This document shows, in pieces, positions 656-15,815 of a stretch of DNA of 26,319 bases. Both the position numbers and the translations under genes were made by a program. The stretch lies in NCBI GenBank assembly GCA_043753995.1, contig JAYUVP010000008.1, positions 1 to 26,319 on the forward strand. Direction: 5' to 3'. The notes beneath the pieces are model-generated. The model was not told the DNA's origin and did not search any database. It saw only the letters and a program-made list of their open reading frames with translations. The stretch is from Fibrobacterota bacterium (GTDB taxonomy: Bacteria > Fibrobacterota > Fibrobacteria > UBA11236). Every line of letters starts with the position of its first letter. Within the stretch, counting starts at the first letter, position 1.

Positions 656-658
656 GCG

Positions 659-1849: not shown

Positions 1850-2487
1850 AAACCCGCCGGCCCGTTTTGCTGGTCGGTGCGGGAGGCCATTGCCGCGCCG
1901 TCATCGATGCGCTGGAGGCCGAGGGTAGTTATTCCATTCAAGGATTGTTGGATCCTCATTTGGCCGAGGGAGCGGAAATATTTGGCTACAAGGTATTGGG
2001 GGGGGATGATGTTTTGGAAGCTTGGCGTGGGCGCGCCGTGCAAATTTTGATTACGGTGGGGCAATTGAAAAATGCCACGACTCGACGAGGCTTGCGGGAA
2101 AAAACCTTGGCCTTGGGCTTTGAGTTTGCGACTGTAATTTCGCCGAAGGCCTTGGTTTCCGAGCGCGCGACCGTGGGTCCAGGTACCGTGGTCTTACCGG
2201 GCGCAGTGGTGAATGCAGGAGCCCGAATCGGTTGCAATGTCATCCTCAATTCACAAAGCTTGGTGGAGCATGATGCCGTGATTGGCGACGATACTCACAT
2301 CGCCACTGGAGCCATAGTGAATGGGACATGCCGGGTCGGCGATCGCTGCCTGATCGGCAGCGGAGCGGTTTTGCTGCAAGGCGTAAGCGTGGCTTCGGAC
2401 TGCGTCGTGGGCGCGCTTTCCCTCGTTCGGAAAAACTTGGATCAGCCCGGCATTTATGCCGGTAATCCTCTGCGGAGATGGACATGA
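1846..2487 (+). CDS. NeuD/PglD/LegH-like hexapeptide-repeat sugar acetyltransferase
   Basis: N-terminal GAGGH, left-handed beta-helix hexapeptide repeats, VEHD and C-terminal AGNP. ATGA overlap with the legC stop. Confidence 0.9.
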   Translation: MKTRRPVLLVGAGGHCRAVIDALEAEGSYSIQGLLDPHLAEGAEIFGYKVLGGDDVLEAWRGRAVQILITVGQLKNATTRRGLREKTLALGFEFATVISPKALVSERATVGPGTVVLPGAVVNAGARIGCNVILNSQSLVEHDAVIGDDTHIATGAIVNGTCRVGDRCLIGSGAVLLQGVSVASDCVVGALSLVRKNLDQPGIYAGNPLRRWT

Positions 2488-3488
2488 AAAGGGTTTTTGT
2501 GATTGCTGAAGCGGGAGTCAATCACAATGGTGATTTCGCCATGGCCTCCCGTCTCATCGAGGCCGCGGCGCAAGCGGGTGCCGACGCCGTGAAATTTCAG
2601 ACTTTCAAGAGTGACAGGCTGGTGGCGGCGCGCGCGGGCAAGGCCGAATATCAGATCGCCAATGGCGTCACCGAAGATTCGCAATTAGCCATGTTACGCA
2701 AATTGGAAATGCCCGAAGATTGGCATTTTCGCCTGCGCGATCAGGCTGAAGCGCTGGGACTGATTTTTCTTTCGACGCCTTTCGATATCGAGAGCGTGCA
2801 TTTTCTGGCACAAATGGGAATGTCGATATTCAAGGTGCCTTCTGGCGAAATTGTGAATTTGCCTTTGCTGCGAGTGGTGGCCAAGCTGGCGAAGCGCATT
2901 ATCCTGTCCACCGGCATGTGCGATTTGGACGAAGTGCAGGCTGCGGTTTCGGCCTTACAAAAGGCAGGCATGAAGCGGGATCAAATCACGGTTTTGCACT
3001 GCACTACGGAATACCCCGCTCCCATCGGCGAAGTGAACTTATTGGCCATGAAGGCCATGGGCGAAGCAATGGGAGTGGCCATGGGTTATTCCGACCATAC
3101 CGAAGGCATTACCGTGCCGGTAGCGGCGGCGGCCCTGGGGGCGACGGTCATTGAAAAGCATTTCACTTTGGATCGCAACTTGCCCGGACCCGATCATCGC
3201 GCTTCTTTGGAACCCAAAGAATTGGAGGCCATGGTGAAGGCCATTCGCCAAGTCGAAATGGCCTTAGGCGACGGGCACAAACGCGTGACGGCTTCAGAAA
3301 TGAAAAATCGCCTTCCGGTGCGGCAAAGCATCGTGGCCAAAACCCGTATTCGCTACGGCGAGATTTTCTCCGAAAGCAATCTCACCACCTTGCGTCCTGG
3401 CGACGGTATCTCTCCCATGCTTTGGGACTCCTTGCTGGGTCAAAATGCGAAACGTGATTTTGAAGCCCATGAAGCCATACAAACCTAG
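2484..3488 (+). CDS. neuB: N-acylneuraminate/legionaminate synthase (NeuB/LegI) with C-terminal SAF/AFP-like domain
   Basis: Motifs IAEAGVNHNGD, ADAVKFQTF, STPFD, KVPSGE, LHCTTEYP, GYSDHT, IEKHFTLD and GPDH. Start placed at the ATGA overlap (2484); 2478 is an alternative. Confidence 0.95.
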   Translation: MKRVFVIAEAGVNHNGDFAMASRLIEAAAQAGADAVKFQTFKSDRLVAARAGKAEYQIANGVTEDSQLAMLRKLEMPEDWHFRLRDQAEALGLIFLSTPFDIESVHFLAQMGMSIFKVPSGEIVNLPLLRVVAKLAKRIILSTGMCDLDEVQAAVSALQKAGMKRDQITVLHCTTEYPAPIGEVNLLAMKAMGEAMGVAMGYSDHTEGITVPVAAAALGATVIEKHFTLDRNLPGPDHRASLEPKELEAMVKAIRQVEMALGDGHKRVTASEMKNRLPVRQSIVAKTRIRYGEIFSESNLTTLRPGDGISPMLWDSLLGQNAKRDFEAHEAIQT

Positions 3489-4653
3489 CGCATCGCCTCG
3501 CCGCCGCATCGCGGTCGTGACGGGCACGCGTGCCGACTATGGCTTATTGAAGCCATTGATGACGCGATTGCAAAACGATGGCCGCGCAGAATTGCAATTG
3601 TGCGCCACCGGATCGCATCTCTCCGCACGACATGGACGGACGGTGAATGCCATCAAGGCCGATGGTTTTAAGCTTTCAGCCGAAGTCCCTGCACGGTTGG
3701 GCAAAGACGATGCCGCTGGCTTGGCCATGTCCTTGGGATCTGTCATTCAAGGATTCGCTAAAGCCTTTGGCCAACTGCATCCTGACATGGTGGTTTTGCT
3801 TGGCGATCGCTGGGAAATGCTGGGAGCCGCCTCGTCGGCTTTGATGTTACGTCTACCCATGGCCCATATTCATGGCGGCGAAGCGACCGAAGGTTTAATC
3901 GACGAAGCCATTCGCCACAGTCTGACCAAGATGGCGCATTTGCATTTCGCCGCTGCTCCGGTATATCGCCGCCGCATTCTTCAATTGGGTGAATCCCCGC
4001 GTCGCGTTTTCACGGTGGGTGGGCTGGGCGTGGATGCTATGCAAACCACACCGATTTTGTCGCGAAGTGATTTGGAAAAGCGTCTGGGCTTGGCCTGGCG
4101 CAAGGAAACCTATGTCGTGACTTTTCATCCCGTGACCTTGCGGCCTGAAACGGCGAAGCGAGACATGCTAGCCTTGCTTTCGGCTTTGGCCGAACGCAAG
4201 GATGCAGCCTTTGTTTTCACCTTGCCTGGGGCCGAAGCGGAGTCGCAGGAAATTGTTCTAGCCATACAGGCCTTTGTTGCGGCGCATCCCGGACATGCCG
4301 TGGCACACGCATCCTTGGGCATGCCGGCCTATGTTTCGGCAATGAGGCATAGTTATGCTGTGGTGGGGAATTCCAGCAGTGGCTTGCTGGAGGCTCCGAG
4401 CTTGGGAATTCCCACTATCAATATCGGTGACCGGCAAAGGGGGCGATTGCGAGCGAAAAGCGTCATCGATTGTTCGGCCTCCCTATCGTCGATAAGGCAA
4501 GCCCTGAATCAAGCCAGCCAGGCCGCCTTTCGCCGCAGCTTGGGCAAAGTGAAAAATCCCTATGGAGATGGCGGTGCGGCTAAGCGCATTGCAGAAACGC
4601 TTTTAACCTTTCCTCTGAATAATTTGCTCGATAAGAGGTTTCACGATTTATGA
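3469..4653 (+). CDS. neuC: Hydrolysing NDP-sugar 2-epimerase (NeuC/LegG)
   Basis: Motifs VVTGTRADYG, TGSHLS, LGDRWE, HIHGGE, DEAIRHSLTK, TFHPVT, GNSSSG, IGDRQRGR and NPYGDG. Start at 3469 or 3445; both overlap the neuB 3' end. Confidence 0.93.
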   Translation: MKPYKPSASPRRRIAVVTGTRADYGLLKPLMTRLQNDGRAELQLCATGSHLSARHGRTVNAIKADGFKLSAEVPARLGKDDAAGLAMSLGSVIQGFAKAFGQLHPDMVVLLGDRWEMLGAASSALMLRLPMAHIHGGEATEGLIDEAIRHSLTKMAHLHFAAAPVYRRRILQLGESPRRVFTVGGLGVDAMQTTPILSRSDLEKRLGLAWRKETYVVTFHPVTLRPETAKRDMLALLSALAERKDAAFVFTLPGAEAESQEIVLAIQAFVAAHPGHAVAHASLGMPAYVSAMRHSYAVVGNSSSGLLEAPSLGIPTINIGDRQRGRLRAKSVIDCSASLSSIRQALNQASQAAFRRSLGKVKNPYGDGGAAKRIAETLLTFPLNNLLDKRFHDL

Positions 4654-5549
4654 CCTTACGTATAGCCTTTATCGGTACAGTGCAATTCTCTTTGGCGGCC
4701 TTGGAGGAGGTGCAGGCGGTGTCGCCAAGCTGCGGAGCTCAAGTCGTGGCCGTGATTGCCGGAGCCGGAGGTGCGGGCAATGCCGATTATGCTGACTTAT
4801 CCAGCTATTGCGCTACTCATCATCTGCCATGCCTGAGCACCGACAATGTGCATGATGAAAAATCGCTGGCCTGTTTGCGAGCCAGTCGTCCCGACATTGT
4901 TTTTTGTTTTGGCTGGTCACGACTGTTGAAAAAAGAAATCCTGACCGTGGCACCCTTAGGTGTATTGGGCTTTCATCCAGCGGCGCTTCCCGCGAATCGT
5001 GGTCGTCATCCCTTGATTTGGGCCTTAGCCTTGGGTTTGACCGAGACCGCCTCCACCTTTTTCTTCATGACCGAAGGCGCGGATGCGGGAGACATCCTTT
5101 CCCAAGAACGCGTACTTATCGCCAATGAGGACAATGCCGCAAGCCTATACGCCAAAATCATCGCGCAAGCCCGTAAACAAATCCGTCAATTTTTGCCTGA
5201 ATTGTCCGAGCGCGAATTTCAAACCAAGGCCCAAAACCCACTCTATGCCAATAGTTGGCGCAAACGCACCGTTGAGGATGGCCGTTTGGATTTTCGCATG
5301 GGATCGAGGGCTTTATACAATCTCACGCGGGCCCTAGCGAAACCCTATCCTGGTGCCCATGTGCAATGGCATGGCAAACCCTGTCCGGTTTGGCGTTTGC
5401 GCGAGGCGGGTGCCGAACCTCAGAATTTGGAACCCGGTTTGGTCGTGGGTGTGGAAGGTGGCGTGATTCGAGTGAAAACCTCGGATGGCGCCGTGGAAAT
5501 TCTCGAACATGAAATTGAGCCTCTGCCGCAACCTGGGAGTTACCTATGA
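4650..5549 (+). CDS. Sugar N-formyltransferase (Fmt-like, N- and C-terminal domains)
   Basis: Motifs IAFIGT, GWSRLL, GFHPAALPANRGRHP (HxSLLPxxRG-like), DAGDI, RALAKPYPGA and VKTSDG. ATGA overlap with neuC. Confidence 0.88.
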   Translation: MTLRIAFIGTVQFSLAALEEVQAVSPSCGAQVVAVIAGAGGAGNADYADLSSYCATHHLPCLSTDNVHDEKSLACLRASRPDIVFCFGWSRLLKKEILTVAPLGVLGFHPAALPANRGRHPLIWALALGLTETASTFFFMTEGADAGDILSQERVLIANEDNAASLYAKIIAQARKQIRQFLPELSEREFQTKAQNPLYANSWRKRTVEDGRLDFRMGSRALYNLTRALAKPYPGAHVQWHGKPCPVWRLREAGAEPQNLEPGLVVGVEGGVIRVKTSDGAVEILEHEIEPLPQPGSYL

Positions 5550-6214
5550 GAAAAGTCTTGGTGGTGGCTCCTCATCCGGATGATGAAACTCTGGGATGCG
5601 GTGGCGCTTTGCTCCGTCATCTCCATGAGGGCGATGTCCTGTTTTGGTGCATTGCCACGGAAATGTCCGGACTCCCAGGTATAGCTGCGACCCGCCTGGC
5701 CGCGCGTGAAAAGGAAATCCAGTCCGTGGCTAAAGCATTTGGCTTTCAAAAGGTTTTTCGCTTAGGCTTTCCCGCGGCGGGCTTGGACCAAATTCCGCAG
5801 AGAGAATTGCATGCCGCCATGGCCAAGACCTTGCAATCTTCCAAGCCTGACTTGGTTTATGTTCCGCATCCCGGCGATGTGCATGGAGATCATGCCGCGA
5901 CCTTTGCTGCAGCTTGGTCGGCCTGTAAATCCTTTCGCGCGCCTTTTGTACAGGAAGTTCGCGCCATGGAAATTGCCAGTGAAACCGAGCAATCACCGCC
6001 GAATTCCACTTTTCCTTTCGCTCCGAATTGTTTTGTGAATATCACGTCATACTTACAGCAAAAGTTAAAGCTGCTATCGCTATGGAAAGGCGAAATGGGC
6101 CAACATCCTTTTCCCCGCAGCCGCAAAGCGGTCCAGGCCTTGGCTTTATGGCGGGGAGCCCAGGCGAATTATTCGGCAGCGGAAGCCTTTCAAATTCTCA
6201 AGCAACGCTATTGA
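5546..6214 (+). CDS. PIG-L/LmbE family N-deacetylase
   Basis: VVAPHPDDETLGCGG metal-binding motif, DVHGDH, SET, HPFPRS and AEAF. ATGA overlap with the formyltransferase. Confidence 0.92.
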   Translation: MRKVLVVAPHPDDETLGCGGALLRHLHEGDVLFWCIATEMSGLPGIAATRLAAREKEIQSVAKAFGFQKVFRLGFPAAGLDQIPQRELHAAMAKTLQSSKPDLVYVPHPGDVHGDHAATFAAAWSACKSFRAPFVQEVRAMEIASETEQSPPNSTFPFAPNCFVNITSYLQQKLKLLSLWKGEMGQHPFPRSRKAVQALALWRGAQANYSAAEAFQILKQRY

Positions 6215-6321
6215 TTCCCCAATCACTTTGATAATTCGGTTTCTCGGCGGAATTCAAGATTGAGCGGCTGGGAGCCGATATCCCTCATGGGCGTCTTCCG
6301 TTTTTCGCCTGAGGAGCCAGC

Positions 6322-7482
6322 ATGGCCTTGCATGAATCCAATAAAAACATCGCTGAGTTGTTTACGACCGTGGATGAAGCCTATAATCGCCTCAGTCCAC
6401 CTCCATCCAATCTGCATACCATGACCCCACGCCTTTGGCAAAAGGCCATACTCAGCCCCAAGGATTCCATTCTCACGGCGATTCGCATCATCGATTCTGC
6501 CATGACTCAAATGGCCATGGTGGTGGATGCCGGCCAAAAATTGGTAGCCACGGTTACGGATGGCGACATACGCCGGGCTCTGCTTCAGGGCATAGGCCTC
6601 GATCAGCCCATAGCCAAGGCCATGAACAAAAAATTCCATTCCCTTGCCATGGGCACGGCGCGCACGGACATTCGCCGTTACATGTTGCAAAACCGCATTC
6701 GCCGATTGCCGCTCCTCGATGATGGCGGTCATGTGGTCGATATGCTTTTTCTCGAAGCCTTGGTAGAAGGCGGCCGCAAGGACAATTGGGTTGTAGTCAT
6801 GGCGGGTGGACTCGGCACACGCTTGCGCCCGCTCACCGATCATACGCCCAAACCCTTGGTGAAAGTCGGCGAGAAGCCCATACTCGAAACCCTTTTGAAT
6901 GGTTTATGCGAGCAAGGCTTTCACAAAGTTTGCCTGGCGGTCAATTATAAAGCCGACATGATACGCCAATACTTCAAAGACGGCAGCCAGCTCGGCATGG
7001 AAATTCGCTATGTGCAAGAGCAAAAGAAGATGGGCAGCGCCGGAGCCCTGGGCCTCATGCCCGAAAAACCCACTTCGCCTTTCCTTGTTTTGAATGCGGA
7101 TTTGCTGACCACGGTAGCCTTTTCTCGATTGCTCGACTATCACCTGGATCAACGCGTGCAAGCGACCATGTGCGTGAAGGAATATCAATTTCAGGTTCCT
7201 TATGGTGTGGTCAAGGCGCAAGACAATCGGTTGGATTCCATCGAAGAAAAGCCACTGAAAAAATTCTTCGTTAATGCGGGCATTTATGTATTGGAGCCCA
7301 ATGCCTTGGATTTGGTTCCTCGCAATCAGGCCTCGGACATGACCACCTTGCTGGACTCGTTGGCGACAAAGGAAGGCGGGGTCGCCTTATTCCCAATACG
7401 CGAGTATTGGTTGGACATCGGCAAGAAAGAGGACTTTGCGCGCGCCAATCGAGAGGTACGCTACTTGGGGCAAGACGATTGA
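6322..7482 (+). CDS. CBS-domain sugar-1-phosphate nucleotidyltransferase (PtmE-like)
   Basis: N-terminal CBS pair (TVTDGDIRRALL), then MAGGLGTRLRPLT, PKPL, VNYK, NAD, EEKP, NAGIYVL and YWLDIG. SD GAGGAG at 6311-6316 supports the ATG at 6322; recognisable homology begins near the ATG at 6421. Confidence 0.9.
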   Translation: MALHESNKNIAELFTTVDEAYNRLSPPPSNLHTMTPRLWQKAILSPKDSILTAIRIIDSAMTQMAMVVDAGQKLVATVTDGDIRRALLQGIGLDQPIAKAMNKKFHSLAMGTARTDIRRYMLQNRIRRLPLLDDGGHVVDMLFLEALVEGGRKDNWVVVMAGGLGTRLRPLTDHTPKPLVKVGEKPILETLLNGLCEQGFHKVCLAVNYKADMIRQYFKDGSQLGMEIRYVQEQKKMGSAGALGLMPEKPTSPFLVLNADLLTTVAFSRLLDYHLDQRVQATMCVKEYQFQVPYGVVKAQDNRLDSIEEKPLKKFFVNAGIYVLEPNALDLVPRNQASDMTTLLDSLATKEGGVALFPIREYWLDIGKKEDFARANREVRYLGQDD

Positions 7483-7501
7483 ATAGAGAATAGAGGTGAT
7501 T

Positions 7502-8455
7502 ATGGCGATGACGTCGAATGCCGAAGAAGTATTGCGCTCCGCACTGGAGCTGTGGTGGTTGCGTCCCGAAAATGGCCTAGCGCTGGCATCTTATGTCATT
7601 CGTGGAACGTCTTTATTGCCTGCCCCAGGCGAAAAAGCCATTGAATATGCCTGTGGCGATGGAGTGAACACCTTTTTCAAATGCGGTGGTCGTTTCGATC
7701 CCCGCTATGATCTATTTGTTTCCGGGATTCGCAGCGAAGATGCGGCCACCGTGGCCGAGAAAAGCCTGGATGTCTTTGATCATTATGAGGAAGGCTATCA
7801 ACCCTTAATAGCGAAGCACCCCGTGCATGGCTATGCTGCGGGCACTGATCACAAAGCCACCTTGCTTCGCAAAGCGTCAGCCCTGAAATTTTTCGATCGT
7901 TTGCATGAAGCTGATTTAACGGCCGATATACCCGAGACCGAGTCCAGCCTCGACCTTATTTATTGCAATAGCCTTTATTGGGTAGCACAACCGCATCAGG
8001 CCTTGGCCCTGATGAAAAAAAAGCTCAAGCCACAAGGTCGAGTAGTGCTCGACGTTTTCACCACGGCGAAAGCGCAATTGGATTTCCGCAAAGCCCTGCC
8101 TGGACTTCCGTCCTATTGGCAGGAGTGGATGAATCGCGGGCGCCAAGAAACCAATCCCGGCTTGCAGTCACCCAAAGGATGGGAAGATGTCTTTGCGGGT
8201 TGCGGTTTTACTATCAGCGAGAAACGGGACATTTTACCTGCGGGCCTGACCTGGCTATGGAATGTGGGCTTGCGCCCTTTCTTTCCGGCTTTGCAAAAAT
8301 TGGCCAGTCATGTACACGGAGAGGATCGTGTCGCCGCCAAGGCGGAATGGGTGGACACCTGGCTGCGCTTATTGCTGCCCTTGCTGCAAAACCCCGAAGC
8401 CCTCATGGCCAATACCGAACCGTATCGACTGCAATACGTTTTGCGGAACAAGTAA
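7502..8455 (+). CDS. Class I SAM-dependent methyltransferase
   Basis: Motif I variant IEYACGDG, acidic motif GTDH, SLDLIYCNSLYW and LKPQGRVVL. SD GAGGTG precedes the ATG at 7502. Confidence 0.8.
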   Translation: MAMTSNAEEVLRSALELWWLRPENGLALASYVIRGTSLLPAPGEKAIEYACGDGVNTFFKCGGRFDPRYDLFVSGIRSEDAATVAEKSLDVFDHYEEGYQPLIAKHPVHGYAAGTDHKATLLRKASALKFFDRLHEADLTADIPETESSLDLIYCNSLYWVAQPHQALALMKKKLKPQGRVVLDVFTTAKAQLDFRKALPGLPSYWQEWMNRGRQETNPGLQSPKGWEDVFAGCGFTISEKRDILPAGLTWLWNVGLRPFFPALQKLASHVHGEDRVAAKAEWVDTWLRLLLPLLQNPEALMANTEPYRLQYVLRNK

Positions 8456-8456
8456 C

Positions 8457-9461
8457 ATGCGTGTTTCTCTACGCCAAGTAGACCATCGTCCGGTTCTCGC
8501 CTTGGAACGGAATGGCGACAGCGCGGCTTGGCATGTCACCGCCTGTGCAAGGCGGCTTTTGCAGGAAGGCAAAATAGCCGCAGCGGCCATACCGAATTTG
8601 GCGAATCCCTTGTATTCCGATGCGGAATTACTGTCCAATTTTTTGGGCATTGAACAGCTTTGGCAAGAACTGCAAACTGTGAATAAAGCCTTGCTCGAAA
8701 GTGCTTGGGCTTATGTGGACAATCTCGGCCTTCCCTCGGGCTCGCCTTATTTGCCGCTCATCGGCGCACCGCCCTTGCTTTTCGGGCTCGCAGGGAATTG
8801 CCCCATGACATGGAGGGCAAGCTCCACACCCATACCCGTCTATCCCGTGGGATATACCCGGACGCCGCATACGGTGACGGCCCATCAAGGCCGCGTGACT
8901 CTCCCCGCCGACGTCACCAGCTTTCGCTGCGCCGTGGAATTAGGCGTGATTCTAGGACGCAATGCCGAGCGCGTGCCGCGCGACAAGGCCTTGGACTATG
9001 TCGCCGGCTTTACTGTGGTGAATGACATGATTTCCAATCACTGGAAGGATTTCGCGTCTGCGCATCATCCTGAGCATAAGCCAACCTTTTTGGAATTGCT
9101 TGTCACCAGCTATTATGGCCGAGGCACGCGCGGTTTCGCTCCCATAGGCCCTGCCTTGGTTTCCCGCGATGAAGTCGGTAATCCCTATGACTTGATGATG
9201 TACTCGCGCATCAATGGCAAGACCTTGGATCGCTCGCATAGCAATGCCATGGTAGTGGGTATTGAGGCTGCCATAGAATACCTCAGCAGTTTCATGACCT
9301 TGCCCGCCGGATCGGTGCTGCATATGGGCACCATGGGCTTAGACGGAATCACCGTGGCGGGAGACAAAAAATTGTCTGAGGGCGATTGCGTCGAGTTGGA
9401 AATTGAAAAAGTCGGAAGCCTGCGCACTTATTTTCGCGATGAAAGAAGGAGCGCCTCATGA
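8457..9461 (+). CDS. Fumarylacetoacetate hydrolase (FAH) superfamily protein with atypical active site
   Basis: Motifs VELGVILG, DYVAGFTVVND, FAPIGPALV, YLSSFMTLPAGSVLHMGT and GDCVELEIEKVGSLRT. The ATG at 8457 is 1 nt after the MTase stop, so it is preferred over the track's 8262 start. Confidence 0.85.
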   Translation: MRVSLRQVDHRPVLALERNGDSAAWHVTACARRLLQEGKIAAAAIPNLANPLYSDAELLSNFLGIEQLWQELQTVNKALLESAWAYVDNLGLPSGSPYLPLIGAPPLLFGLAGNCPMTWRASSTPIPVYPVGYTRTPHTVTAHQGRVTLPADVTSFRCAVELGVILGRNAERVPRDKALDYVAGFTVVNDMISNHWKDFASAHHPEHKPTFLELLVTSYYGRGTRGFAPIGPALVSRDEVGNPYDLMMYSRINGKTLDRSHSNAMVVGIEAAIEYLSSFMTLPAGSVLHMGTMGLDGITVAGDKKLSEGDCVELEIEKVGSLRTYFRDERRSAS

Positions 9462-10087
9462 ATACTCTTTGGTTGCAGTTCGGGAATACCGCTTTGGCCC
9501 ATCAGCGTTTTCAAGTTCCGCGCCTGGATTATCCTCTGGCTTTCAATTTGCCCGGCCTTTCCTGGAAGGATGAGCCGACCTCATTGAGACTTCGTCATGG
9601 CTCGCGTTCTTATGAATTGCATGTCGATGTGGTGATGGAATTGGCGAAAGATTTGAATGGGGATCAGCCTGTTCTGGACGAGTCGCATATCGCGGGATTT
9701 CGACTCTGTCTCGGTTTATTCGACAAATCCTTTGCCGAGTCCCTGCCTTTGCCGAGCGTGAGAGATAGAGGCGTATGCGACTACTATGCCCGCTGGCCCG
9801 ATGCTTCGAATGCCCTGGGGCCTTTGTGGAAAATGAGTTGGGAAGAAATTCATCGCCAGCCACTGTCCCTAGCCTTGTCCGCCGGTCGCCAACAATGTCG
9901 CATTGAAACGGATTTAGAGCCGCTTGCAATGTTGAAATTCATGCAACCCTTCAATCAATTTTGTGCTGGAGATAGACTGTCTCTTGGCACTTTTTTGATT
10001 GCCGAATCGCCAATGAGCGGCAAGGTGCGTTTGGAATTAGGCACGCACTATTGGAATTTGGAAATCGCGGACGCGGCAAGCACGTGA
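9458..10087 (+). CDS. Hypothetical protein; probable degenerate FAH-fold paralog
   Basis: Overlaps both neighbours (ATGA at 9458, TGATG at 10085). Four blocks are collinear with the upstream FAH protein: HVDVVMELAK, HIAGF, YYAR...LGP and AGDRLSLGT. Confidence 0.7.
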   Translation: MNTLWLQFGNTALAHQRFQVPRLDYPLAFNLPGLSWKDEPTSLRLRHGSRSYELHVDVVMELAKDLNGDQPVLDESHIAGFRLCLGLFDKSFAESLPLPSVRDRGVCDYYARWPDASNALGPLWKMSWEEIHRQPLSLALSAGRQQCRIETDLEPLAMLKFMQPFNQFCAGDRLSLGTFLIAESPMSGKVRLELGTHYWNLEIADAAST

Positions 10088-10800
10088 TGGAAAGGCGCGC
10101 CATCGCCGTCATTCCCGCCCGTGGCGGATCGAAGCGGTTTCCTCGCAAGAATATGGCCTTGCTCGGCGGCCGACCGCTTTTGCAATGGACCCTGGAGGCG
10201 GCCTTAGCCAGTGAATGCTTTCATTCCATTATTGTCAGTAGCGATATGCCCGAAGCTTTGGAATTGGCGGGCCAATACGGAAATGCGGTTCGCGCCATGG
10301 CCAGGCCCGGTAATCTCGCGGGCGATACAGCCACAACACCTCAAGTCGTGGCGGATTTGGCCCGCAGGGAGCAATGGGTGGAGCATGACTATAGCGAAGT
10401 CTGCCTGTTATTACCCACCGCACCCTTGCGCACGTCTACTTCTATAGTCCAGGGGCGTGAATGCTTGACTGAAACATTGGATAGCGTGGTGGCCATGTCT
10501 GCTTATGGCGTGCCACCTGAGTGGGCATTCCGCTCGAATGCGGATGGTCATTGGGAAAAAGTGATGGCCGATTCCGGTTTAGCTCAAGGCCGTACGCGCA
10601 CACAAGGTCTTGCACCCGCCTACCATCCCAACGGAGCTTTCTATTGGGGTTGGTTACCGGCTTTTCTCGCTTCCGGCTCTTTTTTTTCAGGACGAATGCA
10701 CGGTTTCGTTTTGCCCATGGCCGAAGGATTGGACATCGATTACCCGGAAGATTTAGCCATGGCGGAAGGTTTATTGCATTGGCGCCAAGCCTTACCTTAA
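10087..10800 (+). CDS. neuA: CMP-nonulosonic acid synthetase (NeuA/LegF/PseF-family acylneuraminate cytidylyltransferase)
   Basis: Motifs AVIPARGGSKRFPRKN, VSSD, RP..LAGD, LLPTAPLR, NGAFY and LDIDYPED. TGATG coupling with the upstream gene. Confidence 0.92.
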   Translation: MERRAIAVIPARGGSKRFPRKNMALLGGRPLLQWTLEAALASECFHSIIVSSDMPEALELAGQYGNAVRAMARPGNLAGDTATTPQVVADLARREQWVEHDYSEVCLLLPTAPLRTSTSIVQGRECLTETLDSVVAMSAYGVPPEWAFRSNADGHWEKVMADSGLAQGRTRTQGLAPAYHPNGAFYWGWLPAFLASGSFFSGRMHGFVLPMAEGLDIDYPEDLAMAEGLLHWRQALP

Positions 10801-10815
10801 CAAGACCTTAGCCAT

Positions 10816-11550
10816 TTAAATCAATTCAAAACCCAGCAGCACCGATTTGGCGAAACCCTGATTGGTGTATTCGTAGGGGTGACGCCAATTTTCCATGGCC
10901 TTGACCTTCATGCCGCATTCTGGCGCCAAGGTCTGAAAAAAATCCAGCGCATAATACCAGTTATGCAATTGCTTTTGCACTATGCCCTGATCGATTCGGG
11001 ATATTGAAGCGTAAAAAATAGAATCACCGTGCATGAAGCGTTTCAAGTTTCCAAGAATGTCGCGAATGACATCCGGAGGGCAATGGGTGAAAACAGACTG
11101 GGCCCAAATCACGTCGAAAGTCAGCCCTTCGATGGCCTGGAGAGATCCATTGGGGATGTGATGCAAAACCGGTCCACGCTTATGCAGTCCTTCTCTTTGC
11201 AAAATATCCCAGGCCACTTGTATGGACTTTTCGGAAATATCCACTCCCACGTATTTTTGTGGCTGCAAATAATCAATCACGTATTTGCCGGCCGAGGCGG
11301 TGCCGCATCCATAATCGAGAAAACGATGCTTCTGGGATAATCCATTGCGCACCAGCCAGTCGATTTGAAAACGGCGATCGGTTTTTTCCCAGGTGTCTGG
11401 ATCGGCCGTGATAATATTGTCCTGCCTTTCCGCATAGAATTGCACGTAGGCCGCATCGCCGGGGGCCTTTTGGCGATTCAGAAGTTGCTGATCGGCTTCG
11501 AGGGCTTCAGGATTTTCAACTATGCGATCGATGGCATAATTCAGGCGCAT
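10816..11550 (-). CDS. Class I SAM-dependent methyltransferase
   Basis: FLDYGCGTASAG (motif I), YVGVDIS (motif II) and FDVIWAQSVFTH. SD GGAG just upstream of the start. Confidence 0.87.
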   Translation of the reverse strand: MRLNYAIDRIVENPEALEADQQLLNRQKAPGDAAYVQFYAERQDNIITADPDTWEKTDRRFQIDWLVRNGLSQKHRFLDYGCGTASAGKYVIDYLQPQKYVGVDISEKSIQVAWDILQREGLHKRGPVLHHIPNGSLQAIEGLTFDVIWAQSVFTHCPPDVIRDILGNLKRFMHGDSIFYASISRIDQGIVQKQLHNWYYALDFFQTLAPECGMKVKAMENWRHPYEYTNQGFAKSVLLGFELI

Positions 11551-11561
11551 GATAGCTCCGA

Positions 11562-12377
11562 TTAAGCGAGTTGAAGGTCTAGGGGAATGGCCTCGGCGTT
11601 TTTCATGAAAGCCATGCTGCTTTCCTTACCCGCCATGTGCCGGAAATAATCGACATAGGCCGGGACATGGCGGTCACGCGCCATGGCTTTCAGGGAAATC
11701 AGAAATTTTCGGGGAATGCGGGGGTCGCGTGGCGGCTCTGCCAGGTATAGATTGTCCATGGGTCCGAGCAGGGAAGGCCAGGTTGCGGCATGATTGAGGC
11801 GCACATCGAATACGATCAAGTCTCCAGCGCGGCTCGGAACGCGATGAGTGCGTTCCTTATCATAGGTCGATTCTCCCAGGCGGACCTTGCCTGATCCAAG
11901 GTCCTGTTCGCCATATCCATGTTGATCGGCTTCAAGATGGGAGCCCGGCACGACGCTGATGCCTCCGCCCAATTCTTCAGAATTATCTTGCAAATAAAAA
12001 ATTACCGTGGCCGCGCGAAAATCATGGGCGCGCTGAAATACAAAGCCTTCCTTTTCCTGTCCATGAATGTCTTTATGCCATCCGGAGTAACGTCGATCAC
12101 AAAGACTATTGGAGGGCAGTAAAACCATGTCAGTGCCGAATATCGAAGCAAGGCGCTGCCTCACGCCCCATTGCAAGATGGCATGCTTCAAAAGTGAATA
12201 ACGCTCCAGTGGTTCACAACGAACATAGCGCGTATCTCCCTTGCTTTCCTCCGGAGGCACTTGATCGAAAACCTCTTCGGCCAGTCGGCGTAATCGATCC
12301 ACCTCATAAGGCGATAAAACGCCAGGGAAAAGCACAAAACCGTCTTGATCGAAGGCGGAACGGGCATCAAGGCTCAT
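11562..12377 (-). CDS. Phytanoyl-CoA dioxygenase (PhyH) family Fe(II)/2-oxoglutarate oxygenase
   Basis: FDQDGFVLFPGVLS..EV N-terminus, WHKD (HxD), YLQD...GGISVVPGSH and AGDLIVFD.RLNHAA (distal His). SD GGAG before the ATG at 12377. Confidence 0.85.
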   Translation of the reverse strand: MSLDARSAFDQDGFVLFPGVLSPYEVDRLRRLAEEVFDQVPPEESKGDTRYVRCEPLERYSLLKHAILQWGVRQRLASIFGTDMVLLPSNSLCDRRYSGWHKDIHGQEKEGFVFQRAHDFRAATVIFYLQDNSEELGGGISVVPGSHLEADQHGYGEQDLGSGKVRLGESTYDKERTHRVPSRAGDLIVFDVRLNHAATWPSLLGPMDNLYLAEPPRDPRIPRKFLISLKAMARDRHVPAYVDYFRHMAGKESSMAFMKNAEAIPLDLQLA

Positions 12378-12437
12378 GGCAGACTCCAGCAAGGCTTTCC
12401 GTGGCTATCGGCTTTTCATAACTCTAGCTTGAGCCTT

Positions 12438-14642
12438 TTATAGAGGCATCCCGCGGCCAGCTAATATGGGGTCGAGACGGCGGGTAGGGGAGTGCAATCG
12501 CAACATATCTCGATAGGCTTCACGATCCGGTAATTCATGTCGACTGCGGCCTTCGAGAACCCGCAAAATATCGCCGTCATTGGCGACCTTTTCCCAGGCC
12601 GAGGTGGCGGGATTGAACAATTTGATGACGCGTGCCGGGGTACCCGCGACCACGCTAAAGGGTGGCACGTCTTCTAAAACAACGCTATTGGCAGCCACCA
12701 CGGAGCCACGACCAATCACCAAATTACCACTCACCACGGTATTGATGCCTAGCCAGCAATTTTCCTCCACCGTGATACACCGGCCTAAAGTGGCACCTTG
12801 ATCCATGTAAGGTCGGTAAATATCGGTGAAGACATGATCGGCGTCGGAGACATAGACCCTAGGCGCGAATAAGCAATAGTCACCAATTTCCAAATCACCA
12901 CCGGTGGAAATCATGCCATTGCGGCCTATCAAGACGCAGCGGCCGATGCGCAGGCGTTTACGACCGTCGCGTTCACATACATTGACCCAACTGTGATCGC
13001 CAATGCAGCTTCCTTCCCCAATTTCGGTTTCACGCAATCCAAGTATTTGCACACCGTCCCCGAAACTCACGGTTGGGAACTGGGATTCCCAAGCGGGTCG
13101 GGTTGCCGTCGAGGCATTTGATGAGGAGGGTGGAAGCGCGGTCATGCGGGGAGCCTGGGTTAAGGACGATTGGTGTTGCAACCAGGCCACTGGAATATCC
13201 TCCCAAAGGCCATGGCAAAGTCGCTGAAATCCAGTATCTGAAAGGACTTGTCTGAAATCACGCTTGACCCAGGCCTCAAAGGCTTCCGGCATGCCGGTGA
13301 CCTCAGTGAAGACGCGATTATGCACTTGACTGAAGTAATACTGCAGCCAGGCGGCTTCGGTGTCGACTTGAATCAAGTCTTGAGAGGAAATACCCAGGGC
13401 TCGATCAATGGCTCGCCAATAATCAGATTGAGATTCTGCCCGGATTACGCCTGGTAAATCCGAATAATAAACCGGGCAATCCAAGGCCACGGGACGGCCA
13501 AGACAAAGAGCTTCTAAACCGACCGTACTGGTCGAAGGCAAAACGAGTTTTGCCTGCCTTAAGAGGTCATAGGTGTTGATGGCTTCTTCGGCGGCGATGA
13601 ATCGAAATCGAGGATGGGTTCCATGAGCCGCGGCAAGCGATGCGCGCAGGGGATTGAGATAGCTGAATTTCGATTCCCATAGACTTTCTCGGGGATGTTG
13701 GCGCACGGCTACGGTAGCCTGGGTATGTCGTAGCAAATACGTTACCGTTGCTTCAGCCCATTCTTTACCGTCGCGGAAGGCCGTATGGCGGCCAAGTGCT
13801 GCGGTATCCCATGGCACATTCAAGGGCAGCACAACATCCCATCGGCCCTGCACCGGATGAAGACCGCTGGCGGCTTTTTGAAATCGAAATGCATCGTCTC
13901 CGCTTTCCCGTTTGGCGAATTCAAGTCGGCCAATCGCGGCGAATTTTGCCTTTTCCTCGGGGGTGAGGTCCGTGGCCCTTTCTTTCCAAAGGCGACCGAT
14001 ATCTTCTAGGTGTCCCGCAATTCCACGAGAGCCGCCAATTATGAATCCCGGGCCGCAATCGTAGGTAGCGACGCGAAGACCTTTTTGGCGGCCCAGGCGA
14101 AGCCATAATCCGGTGCCGCCATTGAGACCTCCCGGCACCAGCAAGGTGCCTCGCAAGCCTTCTAGAGTGGCCGCAATAAGCGGAGCCTGCCTTTGAAAGC
14201 CTGCCAAAAAACTATCGGCCAAGGGTCCATCCCCTGATGCGGATCCGGCTCCTCGTTCTTTCCATATGGCATTCCATCGAGATAAATCACGCCAATCCAT
14301 GGAATCCAAACCTTGGGCGGGCGCGGCATATTGGGAGACGCGTCGCCATGGCAATTCGGATTGTAAAATCGGTAACAAAGTGGCGATGGCCTGATTTTCT
14401 GCCTCCGGACTTTGACCAGGATGCCAGGCGCAGTCATCCCATATCAAATAAACCGGCCGGCCTTGGTGTCGAGCTGCGATAGCGATGAGCAAAGAAAAAA
14501 AAGGAATCGGCGTACCGTGCCAAGGCGTTATCAGGACATGCAGGGGTGCGAATCGGGTCTGCACCGGCTGGGCGCCTGTCCAGAGGCCTTGGCCCAAGAA
14601 AGCGCGAAAAGCGCGGGACATATCGGAAAACGAAGCATTCAT
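12438..14642 (-). CDS. Fusion protein: capsule-synthesis/KpsS-like GT-B domain plus C-terminal hexapeptide (LbH) acyltransferase
   Basis: The N-terminal part has VRQHPRE, INTYDLL and TSTVGLEALCLGRPV (capsule-synthesis-like C-terminal lobe). A Ser/Pro linker lies at about 13090-13170. The C-terminal part has hexapeptide repeats, DADH, WLG and DVPPFSVVAGTPARVIK. Confidence 0.78.
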   Translation of the reverse strand: MNASFSDMSRAFRAFLGQGLWTGAQPVQTRFAPLHVLITPWHGTPIPFFSLLIAIAARHQGRPVYLIWDDCAWHPGQSPEAENQAIATLLPILQSELPWRRVSQYAAPAQGLDSMDWRDLSRWNAIWKERGAGSASGDGPLADSFLAGFQRQAPLIAATLEGLRGTLLVPGGLNGGTGLWLRLGRQKGLRVATYDCGPGFIIGGSRGIAGHLEDIGRLWKERATDLTPEEKAKFAAIGRLEFAKRESGDDAFRFQKAASGLHPVQGRWDVVLPLNVPWDTAALGRHTAFRDGKEWAEATVTYLLRHTQATVAVRQHPRESLWESKFSYLNPLRASLAAAHGTHPRFRFIAAEEAINTYDLLRQAKLVLPSTSTVGLEALCLGRPVALDCPVYYSDLPGVIRAESQSDYWRAIDRALGISSQDLIQVDTEAAWLQYYFSQVHNRVFTEVTGMPEAFEAWVKRDFRQVLSDTGFQRLCHGLWEDIPVAWLQHQSSLTQAPRMTALPPSSSNASTATRPAWESQFPTVSFGDGVQILGLRETEIGEGSCIGDHSWVNVCERDGRKRLRIGRCVLIGRNGMISTGGDLEIGDYCLFAPRVYVSDADHVFTDIYRPYMDQGATLGRCITVEENCWLGINTVVSGNLVIGRGSVVAANSVVLEDVPPFSVVAGTPARVIKLFNPATSAWEKVANDGDILRVLEGRSRHELPDREAYRDMLRLHSPTRRLDPILAGRGMPL

Positions 14643-14774: not shown

Positions 14775-15815
14775 ATGGATGAGGCCAATGCCCTAAAACA
14801 GGCCCTAGCCTTGATGGAGGCCGGACGCTTTGCCGAGGCTTTAACGGCTTTGGAAGAGGCGGAAACCCGATTAGGTCGCAACGAAGACCTTCGTTATGCC
14901 CGTGCTCTTGCCCTCATGCAATTGGATAAAAAACACGAGGCACGGGCTGTCTTGCAAGACGTGCTTGAAAAGAAACCATCGCATCGTCTAGCCTCCGAAA
15001 CCTTGGCCTCTATGCCCAAAACCGGAGAAGCCTCCGCCTGGGTTCCTCGTCCTGCCGCGGTGGCTCTACCTTTTGCTGCCACGACTTTGCCAAACCATCG
15101 CATGACGGGGCCTTATGGCGTCGTCGCCCCGAATCCATTGACCCTCCTAGCCTATGCCTTATCCGACGAGGCTTGGAATGAAATCCTGAGTTTTCATTCC
15201 CTGCTGGCCACGGACGAATATGTGAAAGGAGTCGATGCCTATTATCGCGAGTGTCGTAGCCGTTACGGGAAACATTGGCATTACCTCGACGCCGTAAATA
15301 CCCTGTATGCCGCCGCGAAATTGATTAAGCCAGAACATTATTTGGAAATTGGTGTTCGGCGCGGCCGTTCGGCCTGCACCGTTGCGCGGGCCTGCCCTGA
15401 TGTCACCCTTCACGCCTTTGACATGTGGATTCAGGGTTATGCGGGTATGGACAATCCCGGTCCGGCCTTTGTGCGTCAGGAATTACAGAAACATGGGCAT
15501 CGCGGACAAGTGACCTTCACCGACGGCGACAGCCATCGCACTGTACCGGAATACCTGGCTCGGAATCCGAATTTGCAATTCGATCTTGTTCTGGTGGACG
15601 GCGATCACAGCGAAGACGGAGCCTATGACGATTTGCGAAATGTGCTTCCGCGAATACGAAGTGGAGGCATGGTGATTTTCGACGACATCACCCATCCCGC
15701 GCATCCTTATTTGCTCAAGGTTTGGCGCAAGGCCATGGATGCCCATCCTGGTTTCATGGCCCACGAATTCACGGAGTCAGGATATGGCATTGCCTTCGCC
15801 GTCAAAAAAGGCTAA
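14775..15815 (+). CDS. TPR-domain class I SAM methyltransferase (Methyltransf_24-like)
   Basis: About 80 N-terminal aa are TPR-like (AGRFAEALTALEEA; YARALALMQLDKKHEARAVLQDVL..P). Then YLEIGVRRGRSA, FDMW, FDLVLVDGDHS and GGMVIFDD. SD AAGGA. Confidence 0.85.
   Translation: MDEANALKQALALMEAGRFAEALTALEEAETRLGRNEDLRYARALALMQLDKKHEARAVLQDVLEKKPSHRLASETLASMPKTGEASAWVPRPAAVALPFAATTLPNHRMTGPYGVVAPNPLTLLAYALSDEAWNEILSFHSLLATDEYVKGVDAYYRECRSRYGKHWHYLDAVNTLYAAAKLIKPEHYLEIGVRRGRSACTVARACPDVTLHAFDMWIQGYAGMDNPGPAFVRQELQKHGHRGQVTFTDGDSHRTVPEYLARNPNLQFDLVLVDGDHSEDGAYDDLRNVLPRIRSGGMVIFDDITHPAHPYLLKVWRKAMDAHPGFMAHEFTESGYGIAFAVKKG

Follow-up and report, generated by a model that had tools for sequence, protein, structure and literature searches.

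What do FAH-fold proteins do in an operon for a nonulosonic acid? Flagella, capsules, LPS and S-layers bear nonulosonic acids, which shape phage and host recognition, and the known tailoring of these sugars comprises N-acyl exchange, O-acetylation and methylation. The question is raised by a contig of a Fibrobacterota bacterium (JAYUVP010000008.1 of assembly GCA_043753995.1), which was analyzed in its entirety (26,319 nucleotides, hereafter the window). Three coupled genes (7502-8455, 8457-9461 and 9458-10087), encoding a methyltransferase and two proteins termed FAH and FAH', lie there between the genes for a nucleotidyltransferase that we take to be PtmE-like and a CMP-sugar synthetase. A sequence-only reading had described them as a methyltransferase-FAH-FAH cassette and a candidate new tailoring module. 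Our literature searches found no paper linking FAH proteins with nonulosonic or legionaminic acid pathways and none treating nonulosonic acids together with radical SAM and methyltransferase gene clusters; in the portions of the literature on nonulosonic acids and hydratases that were available, nothing relevant was found.

Gene content and coupling of the operon

The names LegB/C/H/G/I/F and PtmE of the canonical legionaminic acid (Leg) pathway come from work on C. jejuni. All genes considered here are on the forward strand. The window opens with a gene for a LegB-like NDP-sugar 4,6-dehydratase (2-655; TIGR04180 LegB, E 2.2e-83; PF16363 and PF01370), which is cut at its 5' end by the contig end, so that its TIGR04180 score falls under the cut-off. 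It is followed by genes encoding a LegC-family aminotransferase (659-1849; TIGR04181, 493.7 bits for a cut-off of 420), a NeuD/PglD-type N-acetyltransferase in the LegH role (1846-2487; TIGR03570, 204.2 bits, cut-off 160.8), a NeuB-type nonulosonate synthase in the LegI role (2478-3488; TIGR03569, 479.8 bits, cut-off 399.65; PF03102 and SAF) and a NeuC-type hydrolysing NDP-sugar 2-epimerase in the LegG role (3445-4653; TIGR03568, 438.4 bits, cut-off 235.9). An Fmt/ArnA-like formyltransferase (4650-5549; PF00551 and PF02911) and a PIG-L/LmbE-family de-N-acetylase (5546-6214; PF02585, E 6.9e-25) have orthologues with 47% and 48% identity, respectively, in the Leg cluster of locus L006. The CBS-domain sugar-1-phosphate nucleotidyltransferase (6322-7482; PF00571 and PF00483) has orthologues in L006 (44%) and L003 (53%). 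Beyond the three coupled genes, a CTP_transf_3 protein in the LegF role is the CMP-nonulosonate synthetase (10087-10800; PF02348, E 1.6e-21); it scores 162.1 bits with the PseF model, less than the cut-off of 205.7.

With LegB, LegC, N-acetyltransferase, 2-epimerase, NeuB-type synthase and CMP-synthetase, the operon classifies as a complete Leg-type pathway, an assignment made by gene content, as the stereochemistry of the sugar is not readable from sequence. All core steps of the canonical pathway are thus represented; that pathway is not known to contain an FAH-fold protein. A Leg cluster that includes a formyltransferase gene has a precedent in Halorubrum sp. PV6, with its 5-N-formyl-Leg cluster (PMC6137143), which is not known to contain an FAH-fold protein either.

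The arrangement and tight coupling of the three genes are as the sequence-only reading described them. After a 19-nt gap downstream of the nucleotidyltransferase gene, the methyltransferase gene ends with TAA (8453-8455) and is separated by a single base (8456) from the FAH gene, the end of which overlaps the start of the FAH' gene as ATGA; the CMP-synthetase start at 10087 overlaps the end of the FAH' gene as TGATG. The gene starts match the N-termini of homologues. A consensus scan of positions 6000-11800 returned 4 promoter-like sites (4.3 expected by shuffle) and 5 terminator-like sites (8.1 expected); since neither number exceeds the shuffle expectation, the scan is consistent with a single transcription unit. 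The absence of a PtmG/PseA-type amidotransferase, also remarked on in that reading, was borne out by a domain scan of the 21 window ORFs. No RNA dataset covering 6300-10800 was listed; the only matches were two DNA runs, both belonging to a single sediment-metagenome study and possibly the source of the contig.

A conserved pair with a variable neighbor

Loci carrying the FAH subfamily were located by two collection scans using peptide patterns of FAH itself. They yielded 8 further distinct loci in other lineages, or 9 with the window; L009, 99.99% identical to L001, is not a separate locus. The contexts compared are those of these loci, in a subfamily that has some 15 further members, and of a minority of the FAH' homologues. 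A CTP_transf_3 CMP-ulosonate synthetase gene accompanies FAH in 9/9 loci, and so does FAH', which in the L001 genome lies across a contig break, directly 5' of a CMP-synthetase::NeuB fusion. NeuB is present in 6 of the 9 loci, i.e. on every contig long enough, the other three contigs measuring 3.1-5.3 kb. Since all 8 other loci have the CMP-ulosonate synthetase and none is a catabolic operon, the proposal of a candidate new tailoring module stands. FAH was not found in the 40 relatives or in the other 295 phylum genomes searched.

The upstream pathways to which the pair is attached differ. The window and L006 share the Leg-type pathway with formyltransferase and PIG-L protein; L002 has a HAD phosphatase, a short NeuB and a radical SAM protein; in L008 NeuB is fused to an AP_endonuc_2 domain, which in L007 is encoded by a separate adjacent gene. 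Across loci, FAH is the best-conserved protein (37-63% identity), compared with 29-39% for the synthetases. We rejected the possibility of special conservation among the CMP-synthetases linked to FAH, because their identity to that of the window is like that of the relatives' enzymes (30-36%). By comparison of these loci, the unit that is conserved consists of FAH, FAH' and the CMP-synthetase. Gene order is compatible with an action of the pair on either side of CMP activation.

The methyltransferase behaves differently. The product of 7502-8455 is a divergent class I SAM methyltransferase (termed type A) with a weak Methyltransf_11 match (25.8 bits, cut-off 21.2) and a best PDB profile match of only E 1.9e-06, and its glycine-rich SAM motif C51-G52-D53-G54 is invariant or nearly so among 32 homologues. 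We recovered 65 homologues, some of them from named isolates (Hydrogenovibrio, Thiomicrorhabdus, Thalassospira and Pelagibius). Among the 8 other loci, type A was seen again in L004 alone, where a 51% orthologue adjoins the FAH pair; its place in the remaining loci is taken by other methyltransferase families or radical SAM enzymes, and methyltransferases or radical SAM methylases adjoin the pair in 7 of the 9. Types A, B and TylF being mutually unrelated, the methyltransferase was rejected as an obligate third member of the module. The three-gene cassette first proposed therefore holds for the two FAH-fold genes, joined by the CMP-synthetase gene, but not for the methyltransferase, which, judged from the genes found at its place, is a variable accessory exchangeable between clusters.

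The two FAH-fold proteins

FAH (8457-9461), presumed to be the catalytic subunit, belongs to the FAH superfamily (PF01557 FAA_hydrolase, E 1.1e-41), and its structure model (pLDDT 86.6) has as best full-length matches YisK of B. subtilis (8sky/8sut) and LRA6 (8gsr), an L-2,4-diketo-3-deoxyrhamnonate hydrolase, with Foldseek E values of 1.7e-23 and 1.0e-22 and TM values of 0.68-0.79. The three proteins have in common an N-terminal domain and the FAH barrel, and the positions of the second metal Glu and of the Asp match in the alignment. However, FAH is only 19-22% identical to YisK and LRA6, carries an extra insertion with the sequence TSYYGR, and is paired with a degenerate paralogue, which they are not. 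The ESM Atlas returned generic FAH clusters only. The closest folds, YisK, LRA6 and HpcE, are all enzymes of 2-oxo acids, which favors a 2-oxo-acid ligand.

We recovered 24 sequences of the FAH subfamily and aligned them, taking the roles of the aligned active-site residues in FAH and FAH' to be those known for FAHD1 and HpcE. The canonical metal triad Glu-x-Glu...Asp is incomplete: the first Glu is replaced by Ala159 in 24/24 sequences, whereas the second (E161) is retained in 24/24 and the Asp (D190) in 23/24. The catalytic Lys of the K-x-x-D-x-F-x-P-x-G-P segment is R222 throughout (24/24). The lid motif N-Y-x-x-H-x-x-E is absent; the aligned segment reads N114-C-P-x-T118-W119-R120, with T at the position of the lid His in 20/24 sequences and a variable residue at that of the lid Glu. 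T292 of the ancestral 2-oxo-acid site is retained, like E161 and D190. There are 46 invariant columns, many of them charged and located around the ancestral active site; R157 and C158 are invariant in 24/24, and the new invariant residues comprise these two and R120, R135, H143, R222, D258, R259, H289 and D296. FAH represents a distinct subfamily that is rare and whose active site has been remodelled. It has neither the lid His and Glu nor the first metal Glu nor the Lys; with these four residues of the canonical catalytic set gone, textbook FAH or KdaD chemistry as such is unlikely. The same losses leave enolate chemistry of the known type not assured, and the invariant R120, R135, R157, R222 and R259 would go better with a substrate more anionic than a free nonulosonate, e.g. 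a CMP-sugar.

KdaD/XylX enzymes (PDB 2q18 family) are FAH-fold 2-keto-3-deoxy-pentonate dehydratases; their substrate, a 2-oxo-3-deoxy-4-hydroxy sugar acid, has the head group of a nonulosonate, and they had for this reason been put forward as a model for the pair. No specific kinship of FAH with them beyond the shared fold was found. KdaD matched FAH in phmmer with E 7.9e-07 over residues 226-330 only (the C-terminal third; rank 17 of 22) and ranked 47th in Foldseek (TMq 0.54), whereas HpcE, YisK and LRA6 gave far closer matches. FAH does not conserve the metal triad and Lys on which KdaD relies, and it also lacks the lid His/Glu; the KdaD mechanism does not simply carry over with the analogy.

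FAH' (9458-10087) on its own has no Pfam, NCBIfam or PDB phmmer match. A word-indexed search yielded 3 homologous proteins and an exhaustive HMMER search 42, of which 23 match PF01557; the family profile aligns with that of FAH with 98.5% probability (hhalign, E 2.8e-15), and the structure model (pLDDT 95.1) matches FAHD1 (Foldseek E 5.1e-12, TM 0.79). By profile comparison and predicted structure, FAH' is therefore a degenerate FAH fold, and the label 'FAH-like' given earlier to both genes is correct. Of the metal site, FAH' preserves just the second acidic residue (D/E57 in 39/42), while the residue at the first position varies and the Asp position is Gly in 33/42; the position of the catalytic Lys is R112 in 39/42. 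The canonical catalytic set is thus mostly lost in FAH' and replaced in FAH. FAH' had been counted as a second FAH enzyme; its residues make it look like a non-catalytic partner subunit instead.

The complex of FAH and FAH' was modelled with an ipSAE of 0.87 (0.86-0.87 in three runs), compared with 0.00 for the best of 3 controls; solved complexes reach the mark used in 116 of 157 cases and mismatched pairs in 2 of 215, and the score may echo solved structures known to the model, namely FAH homodimers and two-domain HpcE. The runs share at least 85% of contacts, with a partner pLDDT of at least 87. The predicted interface involves homologous surfaces (FAH 210-225 and 279-283; FAH' 100-115 and 164-167) and contains most of the conserved residues of FAH'. 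In addition, natural FAH::FAH' fusions (P0028, P0088 and P0029) contain both domain types. The two proteins are thus predicted to form a pseudo-symmetric heterodimer. The fusions resemble the two-domain layout of HpcE/HpaG, a bifunctional isomerase/decarboxylase (1gtt/1i7o) with two cooperating FAH domains that is the top profile match of both families (E 1e-37 for FAH, 7.3e-14 for FAH'). Unlike HpcE, FAH and FAH' are encoded by separate, translationally coupled genes, one of them is degenerate, and their context is biosynthetic rather than aromatic-catabolic. Another precedent for a hetero-complex is 4-oxalocrotonate decarboxylase/vinylpyruvate hydratase of the catabolic meta-cleavage pathway, in which adjacent homologous FAH-superfamily genes encode the subunits; both of these are active.

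Candidate reactions and their alternatives

The FAH/FAH' module is probably a sugar-tailoring step of the nonulosonate pathway that has not been described before. Our preferred reading, which we hold tentatively, is that the pair is a heterodimeric tailoring enzyme dedicated to CMP-ulosonic-acid biosynthesis, with the sugar acid's 2-oxo-3-deoxy head as its target. Because the 2-oxo-3-deoxy-4-hydroxy head produced by NeuB is the sole commonality of the clusters, the pair would most likely bind the open-chain sugar acid after the NeuB-type synthase step and ahead of CMP activation. C3-carbanion (enolate) chemistry would follow, the most likely reactions being C4 epimerization via elimination and re-addition of water or via retro-aldol/aldol steps. 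Arg157 and Arg222 may partly replace the metal/Lys machinery that was lost, FAH' may supply its conserved D103-Y109-Y110-R112 segment at the pseudo-dyad interface, and the adjacent methyltransferase could decorate the product.

The pair could instead act once the sugar has been activated, its substrate being the CMP-linked form or some other polyanionic intermediate of the pathway, with the FAH fold as a scaffold for an arginine-rich site and non-enolization chemistry. The strict linkage to the CMP-synthetase gene (9/9 loci) and the exchange of four canonical catalytic residues for new invariant ones would fit; however, C2 is locked in the CMP-ketoside, which deprives the fold of its usual free 2-oxo acid ligand, while E161, D190 and T292 of the ancestral site are retained, and we know of no FAH fold acting on a nucleotide sugar. 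We regard this alternative as unlikely. Quite unlikely, in our view, is that the pair and the methyltransferase make or trim a keto-acid-derived substituent (acyl, lactyl or pyruvyl-type), e.g. for the de-N-acetylated amine. Known FAH enzymes do cleave, decarboxylate or tautomerize small 2-oxo and 2,4-dioxo acids (according to PDB titles), methyl-transfer enzymes adjoin the pair in 7/9 loci, and the window encodes a de-N-acetylase; but the latter is found in only 2/9 loci (window and L006), the pair is without a conserved companion gene for acyl transfer or ligation, it lacks the hydrolytic His/Glu dyad, and re-acylation in the window is already explained by the formyltransferase.

A pseudoenzyme complex, binding the sugar acid or scaffolding or regulating the CMP-synthetase or NeuB, would account for the loss of canonical residues in both proteins and for the location of most conserved FAH' residues at the predicted interface. 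We consider it very unlikely, given that the 46 invariant columns of FAH include many charged residues near the ancestral active site and that FAH is the most conserved protein of the cluster, as is typical of a catalyst. That an ordinary catabolic pair of the HpcE, acylpyruvase or oxaloacetate-decarboxylase type came into the operon by chance is hardly credible: the top NCBIfam and PDB matches are indeed the catabolic HpaG, LRA6 and YisK, but all such matches fall under family cut-offs, the catalytic residues of these enzymes are absent, the same context recurs in 9/9 loci, the genes are translationally coupled within the operon, and the subfamily was not found in the 40 relatives or the other 295 phylum genomes searched.

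The preferred reading, an enzyme acting on the 2-oxo-3-deoxy head, can be extended further, to a version that seems to us rather unlikely: FAH and FAH' would be a new kind of enzyme, an obligate heterodimer in which an FAH barrel with a re-invented, largely metal-free and Arg-based site is joined to a pseudoenzyme paralogue, and would perform an undescribed C3/C4 backbone modification of free ulosonic acids, as a module spreading by gene transfer between phyla. If so, the products would be C3/C4-modified, e.g. 4-epi, 4-deoxy/3-ene or C3-substituted sugars, capped by the neighboring methyl-transfer enzymes, and the module would mark an unrecognized class of modified sialic-acid-like sugars.

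New here, relative to the literature searched, is that FAH-fold proteins are tied to nonulosonate pathways. For the superfamily, FAH is a clear case of an FAH barrel without the classical catalytic residues that is nevertheless strongly constrained. For nonulosonate biosynthesis, the recurrence of one conserved module with the CMP-synthetase, in ulosonate pathways that are unrelated to each other, suggests that a step of the biosynthesis is missing. 4-epi-Legionaminic acid is a C4 epimer of unexplained origin, and the module is a candidate for the step from which such C4 epimers may arise.

Three genes within a legionaminic acid-type operon

The contig, 26.3 kb and entirely covered by the window, carries a tightly packed + strand operon from base 2 to 10800, as judged from the ORF list and domain scans. 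Its first gene, encoding a LegB-like dehydratase, is cut by the contig end, and further genes encode a LegC-family aminotransferase (TIGR04181, 493.7 bits against a cut-off of 420), a NeuD-type N-acetyltransferase, a NeuB-type nonulosonate synthase (TIGR03569, 479.8 against 399.65) and a NeuC-type hydrolysing 2-epimerase (TIGR03568, 438.4 against 235.9). Taken at its longest, the NeuC ORF shares 44 bases with the end of the NeuB gene (3445-3488), and the real NeuC start may lie further downstream. A formyltransferase gene and then a PIG-L de-N-acetylase gene occupy 4650-6214. A CBS-domain nucleotidyltransferase gene directly precedes the genes for a methyltransferase (MTase, 7502-8455), an FAH protein (8457-9461) and a small FAH-like partner (FAH', 9458-10087), and the operon closes at 10800 with a CTP_transf_3 cytidylyltransferase gene (CMP-synthetase).

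The junctions of these genes are exactly as the sequence-only reading described them: a single nucleotide separates the MTase stop (8455) from the FAH start (8457), FAH and FAH' overlap in an ATGA (9458-9461), and FAH' and the CMP-synthetase gene overlap in a TGATG (10085-10089). In a consensus scan of 6000-11800, internal sites resembling promoters or terminators were not in excess. That reading saw no PtmG/PseA-like amidotransferase, and indeed no amidotransferase domain was found among the 21 window ORFs scanned. The operon is otherwise a standard legionaminic acid (Leg)-type pathway. The presence of a formyltransferase and a PIG-L protein suggests an exchange of N-acetyl for N-formyl, with N-formyl legionaminic acid as the product, the same product type as that of Halorubrum sp. 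PV6 according to PMC6137143. Counterparts of both proteins (47-48% identity) occur in the Leg cluster of L006, one of the other FAH loci described below.

Other window genes may also concern the glycan. The 734-aa protein encoded at 12438-14642 (- strand) combines a Capsule_synth (KpsC/KpsS-like) segment with a hexapeptide acetyltransferase at its C-terminus and is a candidate fusion of CMP-ulosonate transferase and O-acetyltransferase. Genes for another class I methyltransferase (244 aa) and for a Fe/2-oxoglutarate dioxygenase of the PhyH family (10816-12392, - strand) converge on the operon end; both enzymes may add to the tailoring, and the other FAH loci contain no homologue of either. The TPR-Methyltransf_24 protein, SDR epimerase, GT4 protein with C-terminal TPR repeats and 1367-aa GT4 protein encoded at 14775-22411 (+ strand) include TPR-linked glycosyltransferases, which are reminiscent of flagellin or protein glycosylation systems. 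At 24653-26317 (+ strand), the contig end cuts a gene for a PrkA-family serine kinase that bears no relation to the glycan genes.

An FAH fold with a remodelled active site, and its predicted partner

The MTase (317 aa) matches Methyltransf_11 at 25.8 bits (cut-off 21.2), keeps a glycine-rich C-G-D-G motif in an alignment of 32 homologues and reaches only E 1.9e-06 for its top profile match in the PDB; it is a divergent class I SAM methyltransferase. The second gene clearly encodes an FAH-fold protein (334 aa; PF01557, E 1.1e-41), whose predicted model (pLDDT 86.6) is closest to YisK and L-2,4-diketo-3-deoxyrhamnonate hydrolase (TM 0.68-0.79), with which it has an N-terminal domain in common. 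FAH' (209 aa) alone gave no match in Pfam, NCBIfam or PDB sequence searches. An exhaustive HMMER search collected 42 relatives, 23 of which individually match PF01557, and the family profile aligns with the FAH family over 174 columns (98.5% probability, E 2.8e-15) and with HpcE, YcgM and FAHD1 in the PDB. Together with a predicted model (pLDDT 95.1) that superposes on FAHD1 (TM ~0.8), these matches place FAH' in the FAH fold, so the label "FAH-like" given to it from sequence was correct.

Residues were counted per column in an alignment of 24 FAH family sequences to solved FAH enzymes, the canonical catalytic roles being those established for FAHD1 and HpcE. The lid motif N-Y-x-x-H-x-x-E is replaced by N114-C-P-x-T118-W-R120, which lacks the His and has no conserved Glu. 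The first Glu of the metal-binding E-x-E is Ala159 and the catalytic Lys is Arg222 (both 24/24), with an invariant Arg157 two residues before the first metal Glu position; the second Glu (E161, 24/24) and the canonical Asp (D190, 23/24) are retained. New invariant residues are R120, R135, H143, C158, D258, R259, H289 and D296. The FAH' family keeps only the second acidic residue of the canonical site (D/E57, 39/42) and has Arg at the Lys position (R112, 39/42). By its catalytic residues, the pair thus falls outside the canonical FAH enzymes. Both families share an insertion ending in Y-Y-x-R (TSYYGR in FAH, CDYYAR in FAH') that canonical FAH enzymes lack, which points to a duplication inside their own lineage.

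When modelled together, FAH and FAH' gave an ipSAE of 0.87 (0.86-0.87 in three runs, with at least 85% of contacts in common and partner pLDDT of at least 87), against a best value of 0.00 for three controls; of 157 solved complexes 116 attain the mark applied, as do 2 of 215 mismatched pairs. FAH and FAH' are thus predicted to form a heterodimer, though the pass may echo solved FAH homodimers or two-domain HpcE rather than the pair's own binding. The predicted interface (FAH 131-138, 210-225 and 279-283; FAH' 27-35, 100-115 and 164-167) is pseudo-two-fold, since homologous surfaces of both chains are used. Nearly all conserved FAH' residues (Y25, P26, L27, P32, D103, Y109, Y110, R112) lie on it, and for this reason we read FAH' as a putative non-catalytic partner. 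Three database proteins, P0028 (487 aa), P0088 and P0029, carry an FAH-type and then an FAH'-type domain in a single chain and lend the pairing independent support. In P0028 and P0088, the two fusions checked, the first domain still has the canonical Lys, and such fusions may therefore represent a sister family that is less derived. In its two-domain logic the pair is similar to HpcE, and its predicted hetero-complex of paralogues has a parallel in the 4-oxalocrotonate decarboxylase/vinylpyruvate hydratase complex.

Recurrence of the pair in ulosonate clusters

The FAH subfamily is rare: one genome per species from 185,579 species yielded 2 loci and a metagenome scan 7, and because L009 is 99.99% identical to L001, 8 distinct loci stand beside the window. 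Their gene orders are as follows: in L002, HAD phosphatase, short NeuB, two radical SAM/SPASM proteins, TylF MTase, FAH, FAH', CMP-synthetase and MTase; in L003, nucleotidyltransferase, FAH, FAH' and CMP-synthetase; in L004, FAH, FAH', an MTase 51% identical to that of the window and CMP-synthetase; in L005, Capsule_synth protein, FAH, FAH' and CMP-synthetase; in L006, a full Leg cluster with formyltransferase and PIG-L, nucleotidyltransferase, CMP-synthetase, FAH, FAH' and B12-radical SAM; in L007, NeuB, GNAT, TIM-barrel isomerase-like protein, CBS-DegT, FAH, FAH', MTase, CMP-synthetase and sulfotransferase; in L008, CBS-NeuB-TIM fusion, MTase, FAH', FAH and CMP-synthetase; and in L001, a split FAH', CMP-synthetase::NeuB fusion, radical SAM, TylF MTase, FAH and radical SAM. 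The Capsule_synth proteins of L005 and the window (12438-14642) show no similarity detectable by BLAST.

Two of the fusions are unusual, namely the 576-aa CMP-synthetase::NeuB protein (L001, 147-1877) and a 766-aa CBS-NeuB-SAF-xylose-isomerase-like TIM barrel protein (L008, 2223-4523). In genome G296 an assembly break splits the FAH' gene between L026 (1-657), a second contig, and L001 (1-160); the peptides encoded at the two ends overlap, so the contigs join, and the resulting cluster contains an ATP-grasp protein, a DegT protein, three B12-radical SAM enzymes and several MTases.

The neighbourhood search proposed in the sequence-only reading thus bore out the link to nonulosonate genes: with the window counted, a CTP_transf_3 gene is present in 9/9 loci and NeuB in 6/9, the other three being contigs of 3.1-5.3 kb. 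An FAH' HMM built from database proteins, locus sequences excluded, recovered the partner in the window and L002-L008 (E 3e-42 or better). FAH is the best-conserved protein across clusters (37-63% identity; FAH' 22-36%, CMP-synthetases 29-39%). Among 41 genomes the subfamily occurs in the window's own and in none of 40 relatives, nor was it found in the other 295 genomes of the phylum examined, and its named matches come from two MAGs, one of Proteobacteria and one of Zixibacteria. It therefore looks as if the module travels with ulosonate clusters between lineages.

The proposed MTase-FAH-FAH-like cassette holds in part. FAH and FAH' occur together in all nine loci, while L004 is the one other locus with an MTase of the window's type, and the MTase is not a fixed member of the module. 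Its family (65 proteins, named isolates included) is wider than the FAH subfamily, and four further co-locations with FAH, on host contigs of equal size, are only a hint. An MTase of ~250 aa that is unrelated to the window's lies beside the pair in L002, L007 and L008, TylF-type MTases occur in L001 and L002, and a B12-radical SAM enzyme in L006. It is notable that methyl-transfer enzymes of one kind or another recur beside the pair, although they are common in glycan clusters.

Possible roles of the pair

Our functional statements draw on synteny, conservation and predicted structures, with eight other contexts inspected. The clusters differ in their aldose-making steps and share the NeuB product, a 2-oxo-3-deoxy-4-hydroxy acid, and CMP activation. 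To our knowledge, every characterised FAH-fold enzyme binds a 2-oxo or 2,4-dioxo acid and stabilises a C3 carbanion or enolate. On these grounds, our leading yet tentative proposal is a heterodimeric tailoring enzyme that would bind the open-chain sugar acid ahead of CMP activation and then act on C3/C4 by enolate chemistry, most plausibly epimerising C4 via water elimination and re-addition or retro-aldol/aldol. Loss of the His/Glu dyad disfavours hydrolysis, and with one metal ligand and the Lys gone the mechanism is not transferable from KdaD or FAHD1; the pair shows no special kinship to KdaD.

The five invariant arginines of the FAH family would suit a more anionic substrate such as a CMP-sugar, which we hold to be unlikely, though less so than the other alternatives to tailoring of the free acid. 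It is doubtful that the pair makes a small substituent derived from a keto acid, and slightly more doubtful that it is a non-catalytic scaffold, while a catabolic enzyme placed in the operon by coincidence is very improbable. We leave some weight unassigned, since an unlisted explanation is still possible.

Full-text searches, over a literature that leaves out most subscription journals, turned up no paper in which an FAH term occurs together with nonulosonic or legionaminic acid. What appears to be new, from sequence comparison and modelling, is an FAH-fold subfamily and a predicted hetero-complex with a new biosynthetic association, for which tailoring of the free ulosonate is a proposed function.
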